A stretch of 64,000 bases of DNA, taken from the NCBI GenBank assembly GCA_963664405.1, contig OY761158.1, positions 352,001-416,000 of the forward strand. The letters are read 5' to 3'. Origin of the DNA: Thermoanaerobaculia bacterium (GTDB lineage Bacteria > Acidobacteriota > Thermoanaerobaculia > Multivoradales > Multivoraceae). Numbering within the stretch: position 1 is the stretch's first letter; every line of letters begins with the position of its first letter. Shown here piece by piece: positions 871 through 60,376 of this stretch. The position numbers were made by a program, and so were the translations under genes. Below the pieces are notes generated by a model. It worked only from the letters and a program-made list of their open reading frames with translations. It was not told where the DNA came from and ran no database searches.

Positions 871-3764
871 TGGCTCTCCTCCTCCTTCGATGCCAGGTGC
901 TCGGGCAGGAGCACTACTTCGACGTAGTTCTTTTCGTCGAGCCACTTACGCGCCGAAGCTCTGATCTTCTTGGCGCTGAGCCCTTGGATCCAGGTCTCCA
1001 AGTCGAGAATCTGCTCTACATCCTCACCGTGATAATCGTAAAAACGAAGCGTCCTCAACCAGAAGCCGTTGCGCTTGACGTCGGTCTCTCGCCGGCGTCG
1101 CTGGGTCTCCTGGATCTTGCTCACCAACTCGTCTTCTACCCGCTTCTTCTTGAGCACCCGGATCTCGGAAAAAACGCGCGCCACCAGCTCGTCGACGCGA
1201 TCGGGCGCGCAGCCGAAGCTGACCATGAAGCGGTAAGACTCGCGAGGATAGTGGCTGGTACTCGGGAATGCGCTCACTCCGTAGGTTCCGCCGAGCTCCT
1301 CGCGGAGGGCGTCGCGTAGGCGCATGCTCAACGCCTGCGCCATCGACGCCATCAGATAGCGACTCTCTCGACCCCACTCGAAGTCACCGTTGAAGGTGAT
1401 CCGCACCTGGCTCTTGTCCTCGAGCCCTCGATACACCCTCTCGCGCACAACTCCGCGCGGCGCTCTCACACCAACATCGCGGTAGGTCTCCTCTCGGCCG
1501 GCAGCCGGAAGATTGCCGAGATAGCTCCGAACCAGCGGCTCGATCGTCGCCAGATCGAAAGCGCCAACAAAGAAGAAGGCAGCATCGCCCAGGTCGGCGA
1601 AACGCTCTCGGTAGATCGCCATTGAGCGATCGAGATCCATCTCTTCGAGCAGTTCTGTGGTGAACGGACGGCGTCGAGTATGCCCTTGGCTCAGAATCGA
1701 CCGTAGACGGTCGCCGAATAGGGTCTCGGGTCGTGCCTCGCGGTTCTCCACCGCAGCCTCGAGACGTGACAGGTACGAAGAGAAGGCCATCTCGTCTCGG
1801 CGGGGCTCGGTGGCATAGAGATAGATCAGCTGAAAGAGGGTCTCGAGGTCCTCTGGCGAGCCACCCCCCGAGATTCCCTCCTCGAGCTCCGAGATGTAAG
1901 ACGAAACCTGCACCACCTTCCCCGACAACTTCTTGCCGAGCTCGATGAGGTCGAAGTCGCCGACACCCGCTAACCCGGCCACTCCGTCGGCCGTCATCGC
2001 CGCCACCCAGTCTTCGTCGGCGACCAGAGAATGCCCCCCTGGACTGTAGGAAGTGAAGCTGACTTCGTCGTTCTTGAAGTCGGTTGGCTTCAGGAAGACG
2101 CGGACTCCGTTTGCGAGCTTCCACTGATGAACCCCCAGGCTCTCGATCTCGACGCGCTCGACGATCGCCACCTCGGGAAGCTCGGCCGACAACAGCGGCG
2201 CCTCGGAGACATGATCGTTCCATGGCGCAATGTCGGCAGCCTCGACGCGGCGGAACACGGCGAGCAGCTCCTCTTCCGTGGGCGGCGAGTCGGTGGCGCT
2301 CTCGGGTGCCGACACCAGAATCACGCGATTACTCTCGCCCAGAAACTGTGAGGCAAGGGTATTGACCTCCTCGACCCCGATGCCCGGAAGCATCTCTTCG
2401 GCGAGCGCGCGCTCGTAAGCGATGCCTGGAGTGCTCTCGCCGTCGAGAAAGACGCGAATGTACTCGGAAGCGTAGGAGCGCGACTCAGTTTTGTCTCGCT
2501 CGTTGAAGGCACGCTCGTAGGAGCGCAACAGGGAGACCCGCTGGCGCTCCAGCTCGCTGTGGAGAAACCCGTGGCGTCGTACTCGCTCCGCCTCCGTGAG
2601 CACGGCTTCGAGTCCACGGTCCAGTCCGCCTTCGCGGACTCCGGCACCCAGCGTATTCATGTCCTTGGTGCGGGCGAAAGAACCACCCCCGACAGAAGCG
2701 CCGAGGTAAGGTGGGTCCGCCTCTTGGGATCGCTCCGCCAGCCGCGCATTGAGCATGCTGTAGTAGAGCGACTCGACAAACGAGCGTCGGTAGTCACCAA
2801 CGGTCCCCTGGGGAGCCTTTTCGCGCTTGAAAGCGACGCTCACCGAGGTCCGGGTGAGCTCCGGATCCGTGGCAATCGAGATCAGGGTCTCATCGTGATC
2901 AGGCACCTCGGCCTCTTCTCGCGGGCGGGGGTTCTCGGGACCGCGAAGCGCTCCGAAGGTCGAGCGAACTAGAGACTCCAACTTTGAGGTCTCGACATCG
3001 CCAACCGCCACAACCGCCATCAGCTCGGGGCGGTACCACTCACGGTAGAAACGGCGTAGCTCTTCGTGGGGAAAGCCCTCGAGCACCTCTTTGGTGCCGA
3101 TCGGGAGCCTCTCCGCATAACGCGAGCCCTTGAACAGAACCGGGTACTGCTGGTCTTGAATGCGCTGGGCGGCACCACGGCGACCGCGCCACTCCTCGAT
3201 CACCACGCCTCGCTCCGCGTCTATCTCCTCACCATCGAGTCTGAGGCCCTGCGCCCAATCGCCGAGGATCTCAAAACCCTTGGCGAGGGTGGACTCCTCA
3301 TCGGTCGGCACCTGCAGGATGTAAACGGTCTGATCGAATGAAGTGTAGGCATTGAGGTCGGCGCCGAAACGCATGCCGATGGACTCGAGGTAATTCACCA
3401 GATCCTGCTTGGCGAAGTGAGTGGTCCCGTTGAAGGCCATGTGCTCGACGAAGTGCGCGAGCCCCTGCTGACTCTCGTCTTCGAGAATGGAGCCCACGTT
3501 GAGTACGAGCCGAAGCTCGAGCCTCTTCTCCGGTTTGGGATTCTCACGGAGGTAGTAGCGCAAACCGTTGTCGAGTCGACCCGTAACCAGCGCGGAATCG
3601 ACAGGAAGAGGCTTACTGAGCTCTAAAGCTGTGGGACCCTCTGCGACTGCGGCGCCCTGCTGAGCATCTGCAGAGACGCTCAATAGCGCTGCGAGAGCCA
3701 AGGCGAGCGCAAACAGCCTGTTCAGAAGGCGAGTGCTTCCTACGTTGCGATGGGGCATCCCCAA
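867..3764 (-). CDS. M16 family zinc metallopeptidase (PqqL-like insulinase)
   Basis: Inverted zinc motif HFVEH (GLAHFVEHMAFNGT), NAYTSFDQTVY, signal peptide, 965 aa. Confidence 0.93.
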   Translation of the reverse strand: MGMPHRNVGSTRLLNRLFALALALAALLSVSADAQQGAAVAEGPTALELSKPLPVDSALVTGRLDNGLRYYLRENPKPEKRLELRLVLNVGSILEDESQQGLAHFVEHMAFNGTTHFAKQDLVNYLESIGMRFGADLNAYTSFDQTVYILQVPTDEESTLAKGFEILGDWAQGLRLDGEEIDAERGVVIEEWRGRRGAAQRIQDQQYPVLFKGSRYAERLPIGTKEVLEGFPHEELRRFYREWYRPELMAVVAVGDVETSKLESLVRSTFGALRGPENPRPREEAEVPDHDETLISIATDPELTRTSVSVAFKREKAPQGTVGDYRRSFVESLYYSMLNARLAERSQEADPPYLGASVGGGSFARTKDMNTLGAGVREGGLDRGLEAVLTEAERVRRHGFLHSELERQRVSLLRSYERAFNERDKTESRSYASEYIRVFLDGESTPGIAYERALAEEMLPGIGVEEVNTLASQFLGESNRVILVSAPESATDSPPTEEELLAVFRRVEAADIAPWNDHVSEAPLLSAELPEVAIVERVEIESLGVHQWKLANGVRVFLKPTDFKNDEVSFTSYSPGGHSLVADEDWVAAMTADGVAGLAGVGDFDLIELGKKLSGKVVQVSSYISELEEGISGGGSPEDLETLFQLIYLYATEPRRDEMAFSSYLSRLEAAVENREARPETLFGDRLRSILSQGHTRRRPFTTELLEEMDLDRSMAIYRERFADLGDAAFFFVGAFDLATIEPLVRSYLGNLPAAGREETYRDVGVRAPRGVVRERVYRGLEDKSQVRITFNGDFEWGRESRYLMASMAQALSMRLRDALREELGGTYGVSAFPSTSHYPRESYRFMVSFGCAPDRVDELVARVFSEIRVLKKKRVEDELVSKIQETQRRRRETDVKRNGFWLRTLRFYDYHGEDVEQILDLETWIQGLSAKKIRASARKWLDEKNYVEVVLLPEHLASKEEESQ

Positions 3765-3772
3765 CCCCCTTC

Positions 3773-4510
3773 CTACTCGCTCGGCTCGGCGAGCTTACCC
3801 TCGGGGATCACGGCCCGAAGCGCCTCGGCCGCCTTATCGATGCACTCCTGGTCGGTACCGTCGACCGTCAACATGACTCGATAGTCGGTGCGGTCGGACA
3901 CGGGGTAGCTGCCGATCGAGACTTGGTCGTGGAGCGCTGCGATTCGAGCCAGCGGTCTCGCCAGCTCACCCTCATCGCACAGGGTATAGACCGCCCTGCT
4001 ACGAAACGGCCTCTCGCTTCCCCGCAGCTCATCGACCAGCCCAGGAAGCTTCATCCGGAAAACCTTGGGCAGCCCCGGAAGAACGAAAACGTTCTCCATC
4101 ACCACGGTCGGCCAGCGCACGTCCTCCGAGCGCATCAAGGTCGCCCCCTCGGGGATGTCCGCCATCAACAGATGGCCATCGGAGCAACGGTCACCCAGGA
4201 GCCCACGAATCAGCTCCGCCAGCTCCGTACTGCGGACCAGCTTTTTCCCGAACGCCTTCGCTACTGCCACGTGTGTCACATCGTCGTGAGTGGGGCCGAC
4301 GCCGCCGGTGGTAAAGACCACGTCATGGCTCGCCCGCAGCGCGTTGAGGTCGGCCACGATGACGTCGACTTCGTCGCGACAGATCACCACTCTCTCGAGT
4401 GAGATCCCGAGATCGAAGAGCTCGGTGGCGAGATCCCGCACATTCGTCTCCTGGATCTTTCCAGTGAGGATCTCGTTGCCAATTATCAAGGCCGCCGCGG
4501 TACGCGCCAT
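3773..4510 (-). CDS. CinA-like molybdopterin-binding domain protein
   Basis: IIGNEILTGKIQETN, TTGGVGPTHDDVT and LPGLP motifs. Confidence 0.88.
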   Translation of the reverse strand: MARTAAALIIGNEILTGKIQETNVRDLATELFDLGISLERVVICRDEVDVIVADLNALRASHDVVFTTGGVGPTHDDVTHVAVAKAFGKKLVRSTELAELIRGLLGDRCSDGHLLMADIPEGATLMRSEDVRWPTVVMENVFVLPGLPKVFRMKLPGLVDELRGSERPFRSRAVYTLCDEGELARPLARIAALHDQVSIGSYPVSDRTDYRVMLTVDGTDQECIDKAAEALRAVIPEGKLAEPSE

Positions 4511-53015: not shown

Positions 53016-54158
53016 CTAGCCGCGCTTACCCTGTTTACTCTTGCGAACGCCCCAGAGACCACTTCCAGGCTCCGACGATATGGTTCAGCCGCGGCAATCC
53101 TCCTTGCGCTCGTCCTTCCCCGGGCGATCCTCTTCTCTGGGTGGGTACCGGTCACGGGGCCTGACAGCTTCTACCCGGACACCTCAGCGGTAAAGGTGGT
53201 GAAAGAGATGCTCTCCAAGCAGGACCCAGCCGGCTACCGAGTCTCTGGCGTAGGCGGGAGTCTGCTGCCTCAGTCAGCCGCATTCTTTAGTCTGGAGGAA
53301 ATCAGGGCCTACGATCCGATCACCTTCATGCCCTATGATCGATTCCTTGAGGCCGTCGGAGAGCATGGGCGACCTGGGTGGGTGAACATTCTTGACCCCA
53401 CGCTACCGGCCCTTGCCTTCCTCGGAGTGCGCTATATCTTCGACCAGCCGCAGCCTCCACGCCGGCTTCGCCGTCTCGAGCGTGAGCGCCGAGGCTTCGC
53501 CGACATCGTTTACCGCGGTCACGACGCCGTCGTCTGGGAAAGGCCAGACGCATTACCCAGGGTCTTCTTCCCGCATCGGCTGTTGATTGAGCCCGACACA
53601 AACGCTGCACTCCGGCAAGCAAGGCAACTGGAGGACTTCGCCGCCGTTGCCGTCGTGGATCGCCCGGCGGAGGCATCCTCAGCAGACTCAGGTGCCTCGG
53701 AGGCAGGCGCTCTGGTGAAACCACAGTCCGAAGACGCCGCTATAGAGAACCAGGGGGCAACCGTCGAGGATCTCACGGTCGGCCGCGGGTACCTCCATGC
53801 TCGGGTCTGGGCGCCGTCTCCAGCTATCTTGGCATCGAGTCAGCCCGCGATACCCGGCTGGGAGCTCAAGATCGACGGCCGCCGGAGCGGGCAACACCTG
53901 CGCAGGATCAACGGCGCCTTTCTCGGAGTCGCGATCCCCAGCGGCTCATCGGATGTTGTGCTCCACTACGCGCCGCGGTCTTGGCACCTCGGCCTCACTC
54001 TGGCCCTAACCGGCGGGCTCTGCTGCGCTTTTCTCTGGCGATCTCCCTCTCGGGTTCGGTCCCGAGCTGCTCTTTCCGGGGCGCGTCTTCATTAGCCCAA
54101 TGGAAAGAAGTCTAGGCGTGGGGGCAGGGAGAAGGACAAGCGCTGGCCGGGCTACCAG

Positions 54159-54416
54159 TGGTGGCCGAAGATCATTTCCTTCTTGGGCTACGATCCGATT
54201 CCAACCTCAGAGGACATGCCGAGCCGATTGAAGACGGTTCGAAGAAGGCTCGGTATCTCGCAGAAGAAGCTCGCGAGCATCCTCGACGTTGATCCCGCGA
54301 CGATGAGGAGGTGGGAGCTTGGAAAAGGAGCACCGATGGAGTGGCGAGGTGACGAGCTACGGGTTCTATTCGAGCGAGCCGAACTCACACTCCCCAGGAA
54401 ACGAGAGTCGCAATGA
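54159..54416 (+). pseudogene. XRE-family HTH protein, 3' remnant (copy 2)
   Basis: WWPKIISFLGYDPIPTSEDMPSRLKTVRRRLGISQKKLAS; diverged direct repeat of 43945-44184. Confidence 0.7.
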
Positions 54417-54513
54417 TCCCAACAAGTGGGTGAAGGATTCGAGTACCCGCCGTAGGAGCCTGCTTCCTAGGCGGCTGTGTCGGCATCTCGGTCTCCTTCA
54501 GAAGAACGTAGCT

Positions 54514-56227
54514 AGTTCTCGTCCGGAATCGTGTAAGTTGTTTTGCGTCAGTGGCTTGCGAGGGAGGCAGGGCTGGTAATTCTCCGCGGAGCTTGATAGA
54601 GTCTAGGTGACGAAACCGTTGATTCTAAATAGCTTACGCCGAGAAGGAGCCAGCCCGAGATGCGACAAGCCGTCAGTATTCAGCCTGATCTCACCGAAAA
54701 GTGGCTCGATCTGGACCATGCCAAAGAACTCGAAGCGATCTCTCGCCTCCTCGACAGGGATCCTAGAATCTACGAGCTTGCGTGGCAAGACCTGCAGCTA
54801 CAGGCTGGAGGCAAAGGCCAGAGCACCGGGGCGCGAGGCATGTCGGGCGAGCAGGTGGTCCGGGCCCTGATCGTGAAGCAGATGGGCGGTTTCAGTTATT
54901 CGGAGCTCGCCTTCCACCTTGAGGATTCCCGTAGCTACCGGACCTTCTGCCGCCTCGGCCTCGTCGGGTGGACGCCGAAGAAGTCGACGCTGGCCCAGAA
55001 CATCAAGGCACTGACGTGCGCCACCCTGGAGGCGATTCACAAGCGAATCGTGGCCCTGGCACTCGACACGGGAGTGGAGCGAGGCAACAGAGTCCGGGTG
55101 GACGCCACCGTGGTGGAGTCCAACATCCATCATCCGACCGACTCCGAGCTGCTCTGGGATTGCGTTCGGGTGCTTACCCGATTGCTCGCAAGGGCGCGAG
55201 GCCTGCTGGGCAGCGAGCACTTCTCGTTCCGCGACCGATCGCGGCAAGCCAAGAGGCGGCGCAAGAAGATCAACGACTCGCGCACCAAGGATATGCGGCT
55301 CCAGCCCTACCGCGACCTGATCCAGATCACCGAGAAAGTCCAAGATTCAGCCAAGGCGGCCCGGAATGTGCTCGCCAAGCAGGGGCCTTCCCAGGAATCC
55401 GGCGCCCGTGGACTCCTCGAGGAGCTCGACTGTTTCCTCGAGCGCACCGCCACGGTCATCGACCCGACACGCCGTAGAATTCTCGACGGCGAAACGGTCC
55501 CCGCGAGCGAGAAGATCGTCTCGATCTTCGAGGAGCACACCGCGATCATTCGCAAAGACGCCAGAGAAACGCTCTACGGCCACAAGGTCTGCCTCACCGC
55601 CGGCTCCTCGTCCCTTGTCCTGGATCTCGTGATCCTCCAGGGAAACCCGCCCGACTCCAGCCTCGCCACGACCATGGTCCAGCGCCACATCGCCAACCAT
55701 AGCCAACCCCCGCGCCAGATCGCCTTCGACGGCGGGTTCGCCTCCAAAGCCAATCTCGAAGAGATCAAGCAGATGGGAGTGCACGATGTCGTCTTCAGCA
55801 AGGGCCGGGGCCTTCAGGTCAGTGACATGGCCCAGAGCTCCTGGGTCTACAAGCGGCTGCGCGACTTTCGCGCCGGTATCGAAGGCATCATCTCCTTTCT
55901 CAAACGCGCCTTTGGACTCAAGCGATGCACTTGGAGATCCTGGCCTTCCTTCCAGAGCTACGCTTGGGCGAGTGTGATCACCAGCAACCTCCTCGTCACC
56001 GCAAGGCACCTCATCAACTGAAATAGGGCATCGCACACCGTTCGATTCACCCCCAGCACTGCTGGAGAAACGGAGCACCAACCCCGCAATACGCCGTCAA
56101 AGCAGCCGAGCCTTCCTGATCCAGCGAACCAGGTACAGAAAACCTGGAATCGCACGCAACAGGCCTCGAAAAAAAGCTCGATGAGACCCGGACACCACTC
56201 TATTTCGTCCGTTTCCGGACGCGATCT
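54514..56227 (+). mobile_element. ISNCY-type insertion sequence
   Basis: IR agttctcgtccggaatcg / cgtttccggacgcgatct; TAGCTAG occurs at both junctions once the IS110 is removed. Confidence 0.8.
54660..56021 (+). CDS. ISNCY-family DDE transposase
   Basis: ELAFHLEDSRSYRTF, VDATVVESNIHHPTDS, YGHK, FDGGFAS, FRAGIEGIIS. Confidence 0.85.
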   Translation: MRQAVSIQPDLTEKWLDLDHAKELEAISRLLDRDPRIYELAWQDLQLQAGGKGQSTGARGMSGEQVVRALIVKQMGGFSYSELAFHLEDSRSYRTFCRLGLVGWTPKKSTLAQNIKALTCATLEAIHKRIVALALDTGVERGNRVRVDATVVESNIHHPTDSELLWDCVRVLTRLLARARGLLGSEHFSFRDRSRQAKRRRKKINDSRTKDMRLQPYRDLIQITEKVQDSAKAARNVLAKQGPSQESGARGLLEELDCFLERTATVIDPTRRRILDGETVPASEKIVSIFEEHTAIIRKDARETLYGHKVCLTAGSSSLVLDLVILQGNPPDSSLATTMVQRHIANHSQPPRQIAFDGGFASKANLEEIKQMGVHDVVFSKGRGLQVSDMAQSSWVYKRLRDFRAGIEGIISFLKRAFGLKRCTWRSWPSFQSYAWASVITSNLLVTARHLIN

Positions 56228-56228
56228 C

Positions 56229-57635
56229 CTAAGTAACTTCCTCTGTCTGTAGCGAGCCGCGATCGAGCGGCAGAAGGGAGAAGCCGAGACGTTTAGCGTT
56301 GCGTTTGAGGTTCTTGAGGACACGTTTTCGATACTCGGTCTCGTAGTAGTCCTGTGACTTCGCAGCGTACTCGGTTCCGTATCGGAGCATCGAGTAGATG
56401 ATGCGTGCGAGCTTGTGAGCGGTTGCGGTGATGGCCTCCGGTCTTCCGATCTGACCCTTCTTGCGACGGAGAAAGGCGCCGAGAGAGCTGTGCGAGTTAT
56501 GCAGGCCATTCGCGGCGAATCGCAGGGCGGAGGCAGCCCGATTCGCCGAGGCTTTCGAGCGACTACTCAGCTGCTTGCCGCCGGTGATCTTGCTCCCGGG
56601 ACAGAGCCCGAGCCACGACGCGAAATGCTTCGAGTTGGGCCATCGAGTCATGTCGAGTCCGATCTCACCGATGACTTTCAGTGCCGTGTGCGCCTGAATT
56701 CCCTCGATCGCTGTGAGGTCGACCCCTGTCATGCGGAACAGATGAGAGCGCGCATCGAAGCCCAACCCGGTCCGGGTCTGCTTCTCCTTGGCCTTCTTCG
56801 GTGGGGTTTGTCCGCCCGATTGGTCTTCGAAACCTTCGAGGTAGGTCTCGATCTTCTGGTCGCACTCGCCGACTTTCTGGTGGTAGATATCGAAAAGCTC
56901 CACCGCCTGCCGGAGCTCGAAGAGATGTTCTTCACGCCAATGACCTTCCAGCGCCTTGGCGATCGTCGCCTCGCTGTTCTTGCATCGACCATCTCGCATC
57001 TGGGCCAATCGTTTTGGATCCTGCTCACCCTCGAGAATCGCTCGGATGATCCGCATCCCGGTCGCCCCCGTGATGTCGCTGACCACATGCTGGAGTTTGA
57101 TGTTCATCTGGGTCATCGCCTTTTGCATGTGTTGAATATGCTGGCCTGCGTACGAGACCAGCATCGCGCGCTGTCGCAGGTAGCTGCGCAGAACACAGAT
57201 TTGATCGTCCGGCCGAAACGCTCCCCCCAACAGCCCAAAGGTGTGCAGCTGCTGAAGCCATTGGCAATCCAGCACGTCGCTCTTGCGACCAGGAACCTGG
57301 CGAAGACGATGAGGGTCGACCAACTTCACCTCGAAACCCCGCTCCTCGAGCACCTCCATCAATGGAATCCAGTACACACCCGTCGACTCCATCACCACCG
57401 TGTCGATCCCACACGCCAGAAGATGCTCGGCCAGCGAGTACAGATCCGCCGTGAACGCTCCGAACTTCCGAACCGGCTGCGAATCCCGGTCTTCGGGCAC
57501 CGCCACCCAATGCTCCGTCGCTCCGATATCGATCCCGGCAGCATTCAGGTTGACCTGCTCAAGGCTTGCCGGCAGCTGGGATCGACGGCGCTTCGAATCA
57601 CCCGCCGACCGACGACGCTCTTTCTTCCGAGACAT
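56229..57635 (-). CDS. IS110-family DEDD recombinase
   Basis: GIDIG, VMESTGVYW, KSDVLD, GLCPG..TGG, ATAHKLAR; ATG 57635 with RBS gaggagg. Confidence 0.92.
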   Translation of the reverse strand: MSRKKERRRSAGDSKRRRSQLPASLEQVNLNAAGIDIGATEHWVAVPEDRDSQPVRKFGAFTADLYSLAEHLLACGIDTVVMESTGVYWIPLMEVLEERGFEVKLVDPHRLRQVPGRKSDVLDCQWLQQLHTFGLLGGAFRPDDQICVLRSYLRQRAMLVSYAGQHIQHMQKAMTQMNIKLQHVVSDITGATGMRIIRAILEGEQDPKRLAQMRDGRCKNSEATIAKALEGHWREEHLFELRQAVELFDIYHQKVGECDQKIETYLEGFEDQSGGQTPPKKAKEKQTRTGLGFDARSHLFRMTGVDLTAIEGIQAHTALKVIGEIGLDMTRWPNSKHFASWLGLCPGSKITGGKQLSSRSKASANRAASALRFAANGLHNSHSSLGAFLRRKKGQIGRPEAITATAHKLARIIYSMLRYGTEYAAKSQDYYETEYRKRVLKNLKRNAKRLGFSLLPLDRGSLQTEEVT

Positions 57636-57644
57636 ACATCCTCC

Positions 57645-57877
57645 TCTTGTGCGCAAACCGCACAGGAGTGGGAGCCGCACACTCTGGCACTCTCCTAAAC
57701 GGGATCACGATCTCTCGTGTCGCCACTGTCTTCTACGCAACGCTCCCAGGACCACGCTAGCTAACGGGCACGAAGCACCAATGCTCTTCCGGCCTTCTTC
57801 TCCCCGTGCGGTGCCAACAGAGTATCCTGACTGCGCACCGTTACTTCCCGTCTCCAAGTCGTCCCGACGTACCTACG
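57645..57877 (-). ncRNA. Candidate IS110 bridge RNA (non-coding end upstream of the recombinase)
   Basis: About 230 nt of non-coding end containing short copies of both element junctions (57754-57763, 57691-57698). Confidence 0.55.
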
Positions 57878-57889
57878 CTAGCTAGGCTC

Positions 57890-58150
57890 ATCATCTTGCT
57901 CAACTTCTGGCGGCTCTGAATCTTGAGACGACAACGGTGCTGGTCTTCGGCGAGGACGGAGAGACGCCTGCCGAGCGCTACTGGGGATTGGGCCACCGAG
58001 GCCGGGTCTTCGACGAGCAGATTCGCGTTTCCCTTGTTTCCTACGTACCAGGGAGCGACCCACGAGTCGTGGACGAGTTCGTCGAAACCGTGGATCTTCT
58101 TCCTACGTTACGTGCCGCGGTCGGGGTTCCGCCATCAGATCTCCACTGCA
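57890..58150 (+). pseudogene. Sulfatase-like C-terminal fragment
   Basis: TTVLVFGEDGE...GHRGRVFDEQIRVSL...VDEFVETVDLLPTL resembles the SDHGE...H...VPL...DIxPT region of 24315-25664. Confidence 0.6.
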
Positions 58151-58157
58151 GGGCCGG

Positions 58158-58260
58158 ATGATGGCGCGGCTCCCGGGCCATCAGGTCTTCGCCTACGCTG
58201 GACCGGTGGACGTGCGCAAGGGGTACGACAGCCTGGCGGCCCTGGTGGAGCAGGGTCTCG
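58158..58260 (+). pseudogene. IS66 accessory TnpB N-terminal fragment
   Basis: VFAYAGPVDVRKGYDSLAALVEQGL matches the PVDMRKGFDGL motif, after which similarity is lost. Confidence 0.65.
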
Positions 58261-58412
58261 ATTCGGGACGTCTTGTCCGGAGAATCTCGACTCGACCCTC
58301 CGTACCTCCGCTACATCCAGCTCCGCCACCGCTCCCTTCTCGACGAGAACGAAGCCAAAAGCGCGACTACACAGCCGGAATCGCGCGCTTTATGACCGTC
58401 GACAACAAATGG

Positions 58413-59955
58413 TTACGAGGATCCGGCATCGACAGCGAGGACCCGGCTCAGAAACTTAGCGATTTCTTCCGCGGCCAGCGCGTTGCCCGCGATATTCCAA
58501 TGCGTGTCTTGAGGTTTAAACAGCCTGGCGTCGTTCCGCCGCATGATGGGCAGGAGATCGTGATGTGCTATTCCGAGTGCCGCCAGGGCCTCGGTGAGCT
58601 TCACGTTGGGAAGGTCAAAGTCGACGTTCTCGTCGTGGTAGACCGGAAAGCGGTCGGCCAAGCGGCGCCGAAGGTCCGGGTCAACCTGGGTCTCCTCAGG
58701 AATCAACACAATAGACAGGCTAATGCCACGGCTGGAACACAGGTCGCGAATCTGGCGCATCAATTCTTCCACGATCGGAAGAACCCTCGGCAGGGTCCCA
58801 TCTTGTTTTTGAAAAATTCGGTCCCGACGCGCGAGGATTTCGAGGTGGCGGTCGGGCCCGATCGACGGCCGCTCGTCGTCATAGTGGGGCGCATTTCTGA
58901 GTTCCCGCGGATCGAAGTGCGGCGCTATGCGAGCGATGAGAGTGAGCACGATAATCGATGGGAATGTTGGCCATTCTGAGCACGGTAGGTGAGGGAAGGG
59001 TGTTTGGTCCCTCAAGTAGTGTGCTCAAGACTAGGTCCGTCGGCATCATCCCCGCCGAAGGCGGGCCGTCGGGGCCTGACGCGCAGTCCATACTTGTTCT
59101 TTCGCTGATCACGCTGAACGAGGGCTGACACGCAGCGATGGGATGAACGGCACGCTATCTGATGGGCGATCGAGGCGGTTCGCCGAGCTTCCATCGCGCT
59201 TGGGCCCCTGGTTGCGCCCTCAGATACCTTGAACGGAACACCCATTCCCACCAGACAACGTGATCGGGTTTCCTCGAATCGCCATCAAATACTGTGAACA
59301 AGACCGTCTGAGGCAAGTGGCAGCGAAACGCAGCTTCGGCTAAGTCCTTCAAAAGGCTACGCGACCATCACTTATCGTGATCGGACCGCCATCGATTATC
59401 GTGCTCACTCTCAGCGAGATAGACGATCAATGTTGCAACGAAAGAGTGCTCCCACCATTCTTGGTCAGCAAGCCACGGGCGCTCGACTTCGATGAAGTCA
59501 TTGCCGATGAAGAACGAGAGCAAGACGTGGTCAGGGTCGAGCTGCAGTCCCTCCCTCGCCAGTAGACTTAGGTACTCGTTGGGTCCTATACGGGGAATCC
59601 CCATGTTGATCACTTCGACGCCTCGCCCCAAACGCCGTTCAAGCGTACCCTCCAGCAGGGTTAGGTAGTTGTGCGCGTAAGGCACCACGCCGGTCGCGAA
59701 TGAATCTCCTAGAGCGACAATGCGGTAGTCCCTCTTGGGGCTCTCGGGCTCGAGATCGTGAAAACCGAGTGAGTTGACGCGAAAGCCGTAGAACACCGTG
59801 TCAGGTGAGAGTCTGAAGCGATGGTCATCATCAGAGAAAAAGACAAAGCTGGGTCTTCGCCAATGAACGATTCTAAGAGCCAGCTCCGAGACACCCAAGC
59901 TCAAAGCCAACATGGCCAGCACTTTGGTCAGTGTAGCTAGTCGCCCAAGTGCCAT
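58413..59955 (-). pseudogene. SGNH hydrolase (AlgX/AlgJ-like) interrupted by a MITE
   Basis: N-half ELALR, NSLGF, LGDSFA, FFIGND; C-half LIP, DTHWNIAGN; removing the insert gives VYLARIAP in frame. Confidence 0.85.
58937..59413. mobile_element. 477-bp non-autonomous element (MITE)
   Basis: Perfect 25-bp TIR tgagagtgagcacgataatcgatgg; 4-bp duplication GCGA at 58933-58936 and 59414-59417; no transposase inside. Confidence 0.88.
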
Positions 59956-60376
59956 TTCGCTCGTTCGTGACTCATCTGTATTTCAAGTCCCGGAGAGACA
60001 ACCGTCAACTGGAGCTCATCCGGCTGCGGAGAACGAATGTCCTAACTCCCAGCCAAGGCCCTGCAGTAGCGCTTAGCACGTAGCCTATCGCGTGGCAGAG
60101 TCTCTCTACACCCCCGGCAGCCTTCGGCTGCCACAGGTACCACCCACTTCGAAGAACCCGAAGGAACCTCGCGAAAAGCAAACCCATGTCGGGCACCTAA
60201 GAAGAGACGAAAGGCCCGAAAAGGGACAAGTCGCCGGCTCTCGTGTTGGTAAGACGAGTTGCAAGCGTCTCTGGGCACTCGAGACCTGATCACGGAGCGC
60301 ACTTTCCCTGGCGGCACACCCCCGACGTTGGAGGAGGGTAACCATTTGTCCTCGATCTGCGGTGAGGCCGGCGCGC

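Follow-up and report, generated by a model that had tools for sequence, protein, structure and literature searches.

An IS110-family element beside an ISNCY terminal repeat probably encodes a two-loop bridge RNA in its left end

How an insertion sequence (IS) of the IS110 family recognizes the place where it inserts is the question raised by one locus in a stretch of 64,000 nucleotides from a Thermoanaerobaculia bacterium (GenBank assembly GCA_963664405.1, contig OY761158.1, positions 352,001 to 416,000; hereafter the window), in which such an element abuts the end of a second, ISNCY-family element. An initial annotation, made from the letters alone, had proposed that the upstream non-coding end of the IS110 element holds three guides of a bridge RNA, TAGCTAG (57757-57763), CGTGATC (57703-57709) and TTAGGAG (57692-57698), in an order fitting IS110 bridge RNAs, and all three strings indeed stand at these positions. 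Here, we determined the boundaries, the core and the copies of the element, the structure that its upstream region shares with relatives, and the coupling between guide positions and flanks. Taken together, we hold it highly likely that the locus is an active or recently active IS110-family IS whose left end encodes a bridge (seek) RNA with the two-loop layout proposed below.

The window genome, a single 6.78-Mb contig of 62.6% G+C, carries three copies of the element that are 100% identical, the other two lying at G000:C1:5437589-5439248 and 5335102-5336760. The sequence common to the three copies consists of the element and the core only, their flanks being alike in no more than a few end-adjacent bases. 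Two genome copies of the host IS end are uninterrupted (...gacgcgatCTAGCTAG...), and when filled and empty sites are compared, precisely two bases remain ambiguous, namely CT on the forward strand and AG on the reverse strand, which is the strand of the recombinase gene. Given this 2-bp ambiguity, the element measures 1,652 bp with one core copy, and its body extends from 56228 to 57877 on the reverse strand. The three copies and the two empty sites place the core copies at 56226-56227 (right-end junction) and 57878-57879 (left-end junction), both read on the reverse strand. Beyond them lie the left part of the target, CTAGCT on the gene strand (57880-57885, defined by flanks and empty sites), and the right part, ATCGCG on the gene strand (56220-56225), which coincides with the last bases of the ISNCY right inverted repeat. 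The target rebuilt in the initial annotation, ctagctAGatcgcg, is therefore correct, and its assignment of an AG core on the gene strand agrees both with the empty sites and with the AG or AA found in both RNA loops of relatives. The lack of long terminal inverted repeats and a short core, here of 2 bp, as the only repeat at both junctions are traits of the IS110 family. As a logical consequence of the ends, the circle junction would read cttaggAGcgtagg (...GTTACTTAGG-AG-CGTAGGTACG...). Assembly contigs of three sequencing runs break at 56226 and 57884; neither a circle junction nor a joint spanning the element occurs in the sequencing-run contigs X1, X3, X5 and X8, which only break at the element ends. 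In a relative on a metagenome contig of 2,115 bp (L026), positions 2030-2115 hold a right end-AG-left end junction, in which 73 nt match the left end without a difference. A circular form or a tandem dimer of that relative would have such a junction, and we take this as a hint only.

The recombinase gene occupies 56229-57635 on the reverse strand, starts with an ATG that follows GAGGAGG (57640-57646) and encodes 468 amino acids in an intact open reading frame. The protein shows the domain pair of the IS110 family, PF01548 (DEDD/RuvC-like; E 1.1e-16) followed by PF02371 (Tnp; E 1.2e-11), and scores 260.6 bits against a cut-off of 140 with the NCBIfam model NF033542 ('IS110 family RNA-guided transposase'), so that the family assignment made at the outset is upheld by Pfam and NCBIfam alike. 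The right end of the element stops 2 bp past the stop codon, ahead of the core copy, and the stop codon itself falls within the donor-left sequence.

To characterize the upstream region, we turned to relatives. Protein searches yielded 80 metagenome loci (48-66% identity) and 10 loci on genome contigs, which showed 48-62% identity apart from a partial match of 39%. A strict upstream pattern of two blocks was present in 54 of the 91 sources examined. The first block consists of TGGTG, a small hairpin, CCCG, 6-7 variable bases, AG or AA, two bases and TGGTC; after about 23 nt there follows the second, made of TGGYGA, a variable hairpin, TCCCGT, five variable bases, AG or AA, and two bases. The dinucleotide at the core position is AG in most relatives and AA in a subset, and the two loops agree with each other except in L015 and L069.

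These blocks are embedded in a conserved RNA layout, in which a closing stem, S0, surrounds two stem-enclosed loops that each contain an inner hairpin. RNAalifold, applied to 43 of the 46 eligible sequences (alignment A2, from which the near-duplicates L024, L051 and L065 were left out), revealed the stem S1 (GRCCG/TGGTC) round the first block, the inner hairpin HP1, and a long hairpin, HP2 (TGGYGA...TCCCG). The stems S5 and S0 were not recovered on this long alignment because their arms were misaligned, and we therefore compared cognate segments, taken from one sequence, with non-cognate ones to test them. In the majority of 53 sequences, the bases just past TGGTC can pair with a stretch 8-19 nt after the second guide to form S5, as in the cognate helices GAAGTAT/ATACTTC, TGAGGAACG/CGTTCCTCA and AGAATGAA/TTCATTCT. 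For S0, exemplified by GATGTGCTTCGG/CCGAAGCACATC and GAGACGCATCG/CGATGCGTCTC, the mean score was 7.72 for cognate pairs vs 5.85 for non-cognate ones. In the window, all read on the reverse strand, the covarying cognate helix S0 is formed by ACCGCACGGGG (57802-57812) and TCCTGTGCGGT (57657-57667). S1 closes the target-binding loop with GGCCG (57790-57794; RNAalifold columns 258-262 with 305-309) and TGGTC (57750-57754), whereas S5, placed by its cognate helices, closes the donor-binding loop with TGGGAGC (57742-57748) and GCTCCCA (57669-57675). The inner hairpin of loop 1 is HP1 (TGGTGC...GCCCG, 57765-57780), and that of loop 2 is HP2 (57700-57725).

To quantify the conservation, we scored S1, HP1, S5 and HP2 on a MAFFT alignment of 41 of 52 sequences (A3, without L011, L013, L024, L026, L027, L049, L050, L051, L062, L069 and L074, which had long inserts or were near-duplicates). 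S0 was left uncounted because the S0 helix search had set the sequence ends of this alignment. Over the four helices, 85.5% of the cells were paired, compared to 75.1% in shuffles, and the covariation score was 0.300, compared to 0.140; both values were reached by 0 of 500 shuffles, and slid controls were 37-52% paired. Individually, S1 was 97.6% paired, HP1 was 99% paired and mostly invariant, and HP2 was 92% paired, with 6 of its 10 pairs changed on both sides. Folding of single sequences did not reliably reproduce the layout (z = -0.98), and an Rfam search of 54000-60000 in E-value mode returned no match.

The variable bases on the 3' side of each loop track the DNA that the element joins. 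In the window, the first guide position, TTAGCTAG with the tail CG (57755-57764, reverse strand), matches the left target, the core AG and the first two bases of the left end. The second, TTTAGGAG with the tail AG (57690-57699, reverse strand), matches the donor-left sequence, that is, the right end of the element, together with the core AG and a 2-nt tail. Among the 54 relatives with the upstream pattern, the 7-mer comprising the first guide and core recurs 105-180 nt upstream in 29 (mean of 2.3 and maximum of 6 in 200 shuffles), and in 49 the 7-mer of the second guide is found again at the gene's 3' end (shuffles: mean 6.6, maximum 15). The 25 loci in which the first guide found no upstream match divide into 16 with a single mismatch at the expected distance, six with too little upstream sequence and three that are unexplained. 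Thus, two of the three strings singled out in the initial annotation, TAGCTAG as left-target plus core and TTAGGAG as donor-left plus core, do mark guide positions. The two bases after each guide also carry a signal. In 19 of 29 loci, the tail of the first guide is identical to the dinucleotide with which the left end begins (reached by 0 of 2,000 shuffles), and in 11 of 47 loci that of the second is identical to the dinucleotide that opens the right flank (reached by 16 of 2,000). Cognate controls gave no signal. We infer that the tails represent handshake dinucleotides placed 3' of a guide that ends in the core complement AG. A non-coding end encoding a structured RNA, with loops that match target and donor, is a further trait of the IS110 family that this element displays on comparative evidence.

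The third string behaves differently. Across relatives, it is the 5' strand of loop 1 that is complementary to the right flank, at a position three to seven bases ahead of the HP1 sequence TGGTG. In the window, AGAGC (57783-57787, reverse strand) takes this position and would pair with the second core base and the first four flank bases on the gene strand. At this position, we counted a mean of 3.38 of 6 Watson-Crick pairs vs 1.98 +/- 0.15 in shuffles (maximum of 2.47 in 2,000), and at least five of six pairs formed in 13 of 47 loci (shuffles: mean 0.9, maximum 5). An IS621-style bridge RNA with the guide order TAGCTAG, CGTGATC, TTAGGAG, which would differ from its model only by the AG core, would instead place the right-target guide at CGTGATC. 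The three strings do occur in that order, and CGTGAT can pair with the ATCGCG flanking the window copy, with one wobble. However, CGTGATC corresponds to the 3' arm of HP2, a hairpin with compensatory changes, plus the conserved A-TCCCG; the right targets of the second and third copies do not pair with it; and the covariation with right targets maps, as described, to the other loop. When the proposed guides are checked for a location in loops, as the initial annotation had suggested, TAGCTAG and TTAGGAG are found on the 3' strands of stem-enclosed loops, but CGTGATC lies in the covarying stem of HP2 (92% paired, many double changes), which refutes it as a guide. The claimed IS621-type order fails as well, since AGAGC, the right-target guide, precedes the left-target guide, opposite to the arrangement in IS621 and ISEc21. 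Accordingly, we give next to no credence to the IS621-style arrangement.

Based on these data, we propose the following mechanism for the two-loop RNA. The 3' strand of loop 1, UUAGCUAG, reads as the left target followed by the core and would pair with the opposite DNA strand, while AGAGC, the 5' strand of the same loop, would pair on the gene strand with the second core base and four right-target bases. The 3' strand of loop 2, UUUAGGAG, reads as the right end of the element plus core. Each 3' guide ends in AG and continues with two bases that match the other partner, namely the left end in the case of loop 1 and the right flank in the case of loop 2, which is how the right guides of IS621 are arranged with their handshake dinucleotides. 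The RNA may hence be built like the IS621 bridge RNA, with the DNA read in the opposite polarity relative to the gene and with a CT or TT core on the non-coding strand, and the programmed site would be (C)TAGCT-AG-(T/C)TCT. By analogy with the family, the RNA should be transcribed and bound, and the element should pass through a circular intermediate, with strand exchange occurring at the core.

We next considered which sites this program would select in the window genome. The left neighbour of the IS110 element is the host ISNCY-family element (54516-56225, forward strand; other copies, L004-L006), which is bounded by imperfect terminal inverted repeats (54514-54531 and 56210-56227) and carries a transposase gene (54660-56021, forward strand) scoring 438.5 bits against a cut-off of 325 with NF033593 (NCBIfam). 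The IS110 element abuts the inverted repeat of this element, as the initial annotation had it, and sits between the ISNCY right end and its CTAGCTAG flank. The ISNCY-family element is present in four copies (window 54508-54515; G000:C1 2971457, 2985134-2985145, 2986856-2986867, 5435857), the ends of which are flanked by CTAGCTAG, except that the left end in the window is flanked by GTAGCTAG. The CTAGCTAG-flanked ends are ready-made targets for the IS110 element. This sequence is rare in the genome: base composition predicts about 80 sites, but only 15 are present, 8 of them at ISNCY ends, from which we infer that the IS110 element is tuned to these ends. Two of its three copies abut ISNCY ends, which together with the eight sites bears out the earlier suggestion that it is aimed at ISNCY ends and CTAGCTAG. 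The first copy, in the window, has the ISNCY right repeat on its right-target side and forms two of four pairs there; the second lies at the CTAGCTAG that flanks the left end of an ISNCY element and has a remnant resembling an IS end on its right-target side; and the third occupies an unrelated GTAGCTAG site. Since the programmed site would be CTAGCTAG beside an ISNCY terminal repeat, the IS110 element would parasitize the ends of another IS. The right flanks of the three copies read ATCGCG, TCTCGG and CAGACG on the gene strand. The AGAGC guide has G-CTCT as its ideal partner. The genome contains 106 TAGCTAG sites, of which five match the right-target guide with three flank bases and none with all four; four of these five are ISNCY left ends (TTCT), where the first T could form a G-T wobble. 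Site recognition in this genome rests mainly on the left target plus core.

Several observations weigh against the RNA-guided interpretation and have to be set beside this evidence. The right-target guide forms only 2/4, 0/4 and 1/4 Watson-Crick pairs with the flanks of the three copies, its register shifts by one base in some relatives, and the four sites that match it best, all ISNCY left ends, are not occupied by the element. Neither k-mer scans nor position matrices identified a consistent guide for the left end of the element in relatives, and a candidate next to S5 yielded a weak signal (2.83 vs 2.41 +/- 0.22). S5 itself, whose 3' arm is shifted out of register in the MAFFT alignment, was for this reason just 56.9% paired there, and the 37 sources that did not match the strict upstream pattern stand outside the counts. 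The candidate promoter in the window is weak, and a scan of 56100-58100 for promoters and terminators found nothing. Finally, the window recombinase has Thr instead of Ser at the catalytic Ser position of IS110 recombinases (motif WLGLCPGSKITG; Thr-Gly codons at 56577-56582).

The substituted nucleophile, together with the empty best-matching sites, could indicate that the element is an inactive relic, its three copies having been multiplied as parts of larger duplicated segments and not by transposition. Yet the copies share nothing beyond element and core, they are 100% identical, and their reading frame is intact. Moreover, in the 58 relatives in which the motif WLGLCP....[S/T]G could be located, Ser is found in 38 and Thr in 20, and an S(t)G motif has been reported for IS1111 transposases (PMC11187229). 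A relic origin is thus highly improbable.

Another explanation arises from the ends of the element, which carry a subterminal inverted repeat. Its right arm, GTTACTT, lies 3 bp from the core (56231-56237, reverse strand), and the complementary left arm, AAGTAAC, is located at 57840-57846 (reverse strand). In relatives, this repeat of 5-7 bp covaries between the ends (GTTNCTT on the right, AAGNAAC on the left, beginning 31 bp from the core and ending 37 bp in), and the complement of the right arm is found as a 6-mer in the left end of 31 of 41 relatives (shuffles: mean 11.1, maximum 19). Such a covarying repeat may be a protein site, and one could imagine that the conserved part upstream of the gene serves as a structured leader of the mRNA or as protein-bound DNA repeats, that the protein picks the site and that the flank matches are by-products; the poor right-target match in the window genome would also fit this idea. 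In contrast, the loop positions co-vary with the flanks across relatives that have differing targets, while the stems stay paired, and characterized family members use such loops as guides (PMC11208160, PMC11187229). We therefore regard a leader or protein-bound repeat as improbable, and favour an RNA that guides the element.

With respect to expression of this guide RNA, a -10-like box, GATACT (57821-57826, reverse strand), is located 52-57 nt inside the left end and just upstream of S0, making it a candidate RNA promoter. The alignment shows TATAAT, TATACT or TAGAAT at this place in many relatives. Judged by its sequence, the RNA probably has its own internal promoter and not a junction promoter. 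Between the terminus and the left repeat arm, a short G+C-rich hairpin (57860-57869) is present just inside the left end; a G+C-rich hairpin recurs there in many relatives with differing sequences (alignment A2, columns about 85-125).

Having defined the layout, we compared it with described systems, drawing on main-text passages of the cited papers. The bridge RNA of IS621 has its bottom-strand guide (left side) 5' and its top-strand guide (right side) 3', and the 3' guide ends in the complement of the CT core, the T of which is nearly invariant, followed by a 2-nt handshake guide (PMC11208160, PMC11208158). ISEc21 has the same guide order, whereas the IS1111-type seekRNAs are reversed (PMC11187229). 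In the window element, AGAGC lies 5' of the left-target guide and the top-strand guide therefore precedes the bottom-strand guide. As read from the sequence, this is the guide order reported for IS1111, found in an RNA that lies upstream as in IS110. If the locus is read on the opposite strand, the core becomes CT or TT, the T being fixed, and all features fit the IS621 scheme. The ribonucleoprotein may accordingly be canonical, with the cassette of gene and RNA inverted relative to the polarity of the core and the long guides placed 3'.

With IS621, the element shares a recombinase of the DEDD plus Tnp type, an RNA in the left end upstream of the gene, and two loops that each combine an internal loop with an inner hairpin and include the 2-bp core in their guides. 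Also alike are the 3'-side guides, ending in AG followed by two bases that match the non-cognate DNA, and the opposite-strand core of CT or TT with its fixed T. Unlike in IS621, the core is AG or AA and not CT on the gene strand, the guide for the gene (top) strand is 5' of that for the bottom strand, and the 3' side carries the long guides (7-8 nt), the 5' side the short one (about 5 nt). Further differences are the extra closing stem S0, the -10-like box well inside the left end and not at the junction, and a protein of 468 amino acids vs 315-330 in the IS621 branch (PMC11187229).

The seekRNAs of the IS1111 members ISEc11, ISPa11 and ISKpn4 resemble that of the window element in placing the top-strand complement before the bottom-strand match, and the elements share a subterminal inverted repeat with its right arm 3 bp from the end and the GL-P----S(t)G motif (PMC11187229). 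In contrast, the long non-coding end with the RNA is downstream of the gene in IS1111 but upstream in our element, and the transposases have 330-350 amino acids compared to 468 (PMC11187229). The subterminal repeats of IS1111 measure 7-17 bp according to one source (PMC11208160) and 11-13 bp, with extensions of 7 bp and 3 bp, according to another (PMC11187229), whereas the repeat in the window element has 5-7 bp, with a left arm about 37 bp inside instead of 7 bp. ISEc21, an element of the IS110 type, likewise has an upstream non-coding RNA and targets a conserved feature of another IS family, but its bottom-strand match is 5' of the top-strand match, the reverse of the order seen here (PMC11187229). 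IS4321 and IS5075 of the IS1111 family, known from a title cited in PMC11208160, belong to a different subgroup and target Tn21-family repeats.

At the family level, the window element is thus an ordinary IS110 member, while at the subgroup level, where our placement is based on length and motifs only, it fails a defining feature of each described type. In the main-text passages of the bridge and seekRNA literature, we did not find an upstream RNA with reversed polarity described. The diversity of bridge RNAs is stressed by Durrant 2024 (PMC11208160), a 2026 preprint (10.64898/2026.10.21.760802) built 86 covariance models, and the clade may already stand in the supplementary data of these two studies or of Siddiquee 2024. 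We tentatively suggest, with somewhat less than even confidence, that the clade represents a third layout of IS110-family guide RNAs, lying upstream and resembling IS621 loop for loop but with opposite polarity relative to the gene, with a CT or TT core and probably the first-exchanged strand on the non-coding strand, with handshake-tailed long guides 3', and with a strongly asymmetric subterminal repeat.

Relatives of the element were found in Planctomycetes, Cyanobacteria, Proteobacteria and on clinical Enterobacteriaceae plasmids. One of them, on the Citrobacter koseri plasmid NZ_CP026698.1 (L097, about 2230-3830; 52% identity), is common on Citrobacter and Enterobacter plasmids. It carries the same RNA with an AA core, the first guide being TAAAAAAA and the second TCAGGAA, and it stands directly after a run of TTAAAAAA. 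Several metagenome relatives with an AA core likewise follow A-runs, and on another plasmid (H56) the match overlaps an annotated IS3-like transposase; as a guess, the A-run next to the AA-core relatives could be the frameshift site of an IS3 element. In two metagenome relatives, L063 and L065, the rebuilt targets are the loops of perfect hairpins (CCCCTCC-TTGAAAA-GGAGGGG), and some clade members therefore seem to home to palindromic, terminator- or REP-like sites.

Should the proposed third layout hold true, RNA location and guide order, the characters used to separate IS110 from IS1111, would be separable, the cargo would have been flipped relative to the recombination core at least once, and the clade would offer a natural design with right-side guides of 7-8 nt. 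Bridge and seek RNAs are under development as programmable recombinases, and their design rules were derived from IS621, IS622 and a small number of IS1111 elements. These rules would be broadened by a widespread natural clade in which the polarity is reversed, the 3' guides are long and the handshake positions are clear, and such a clade would test whether the CT-strand rule belongs to the ribonucleoprotein rather than to the orientation of the gene. In the genome studied here, the element would moreover represent a clean case of one IS homing by an RNA guide to the ends of another, a safe harbour and a potential hot spot of genome rearrangement.

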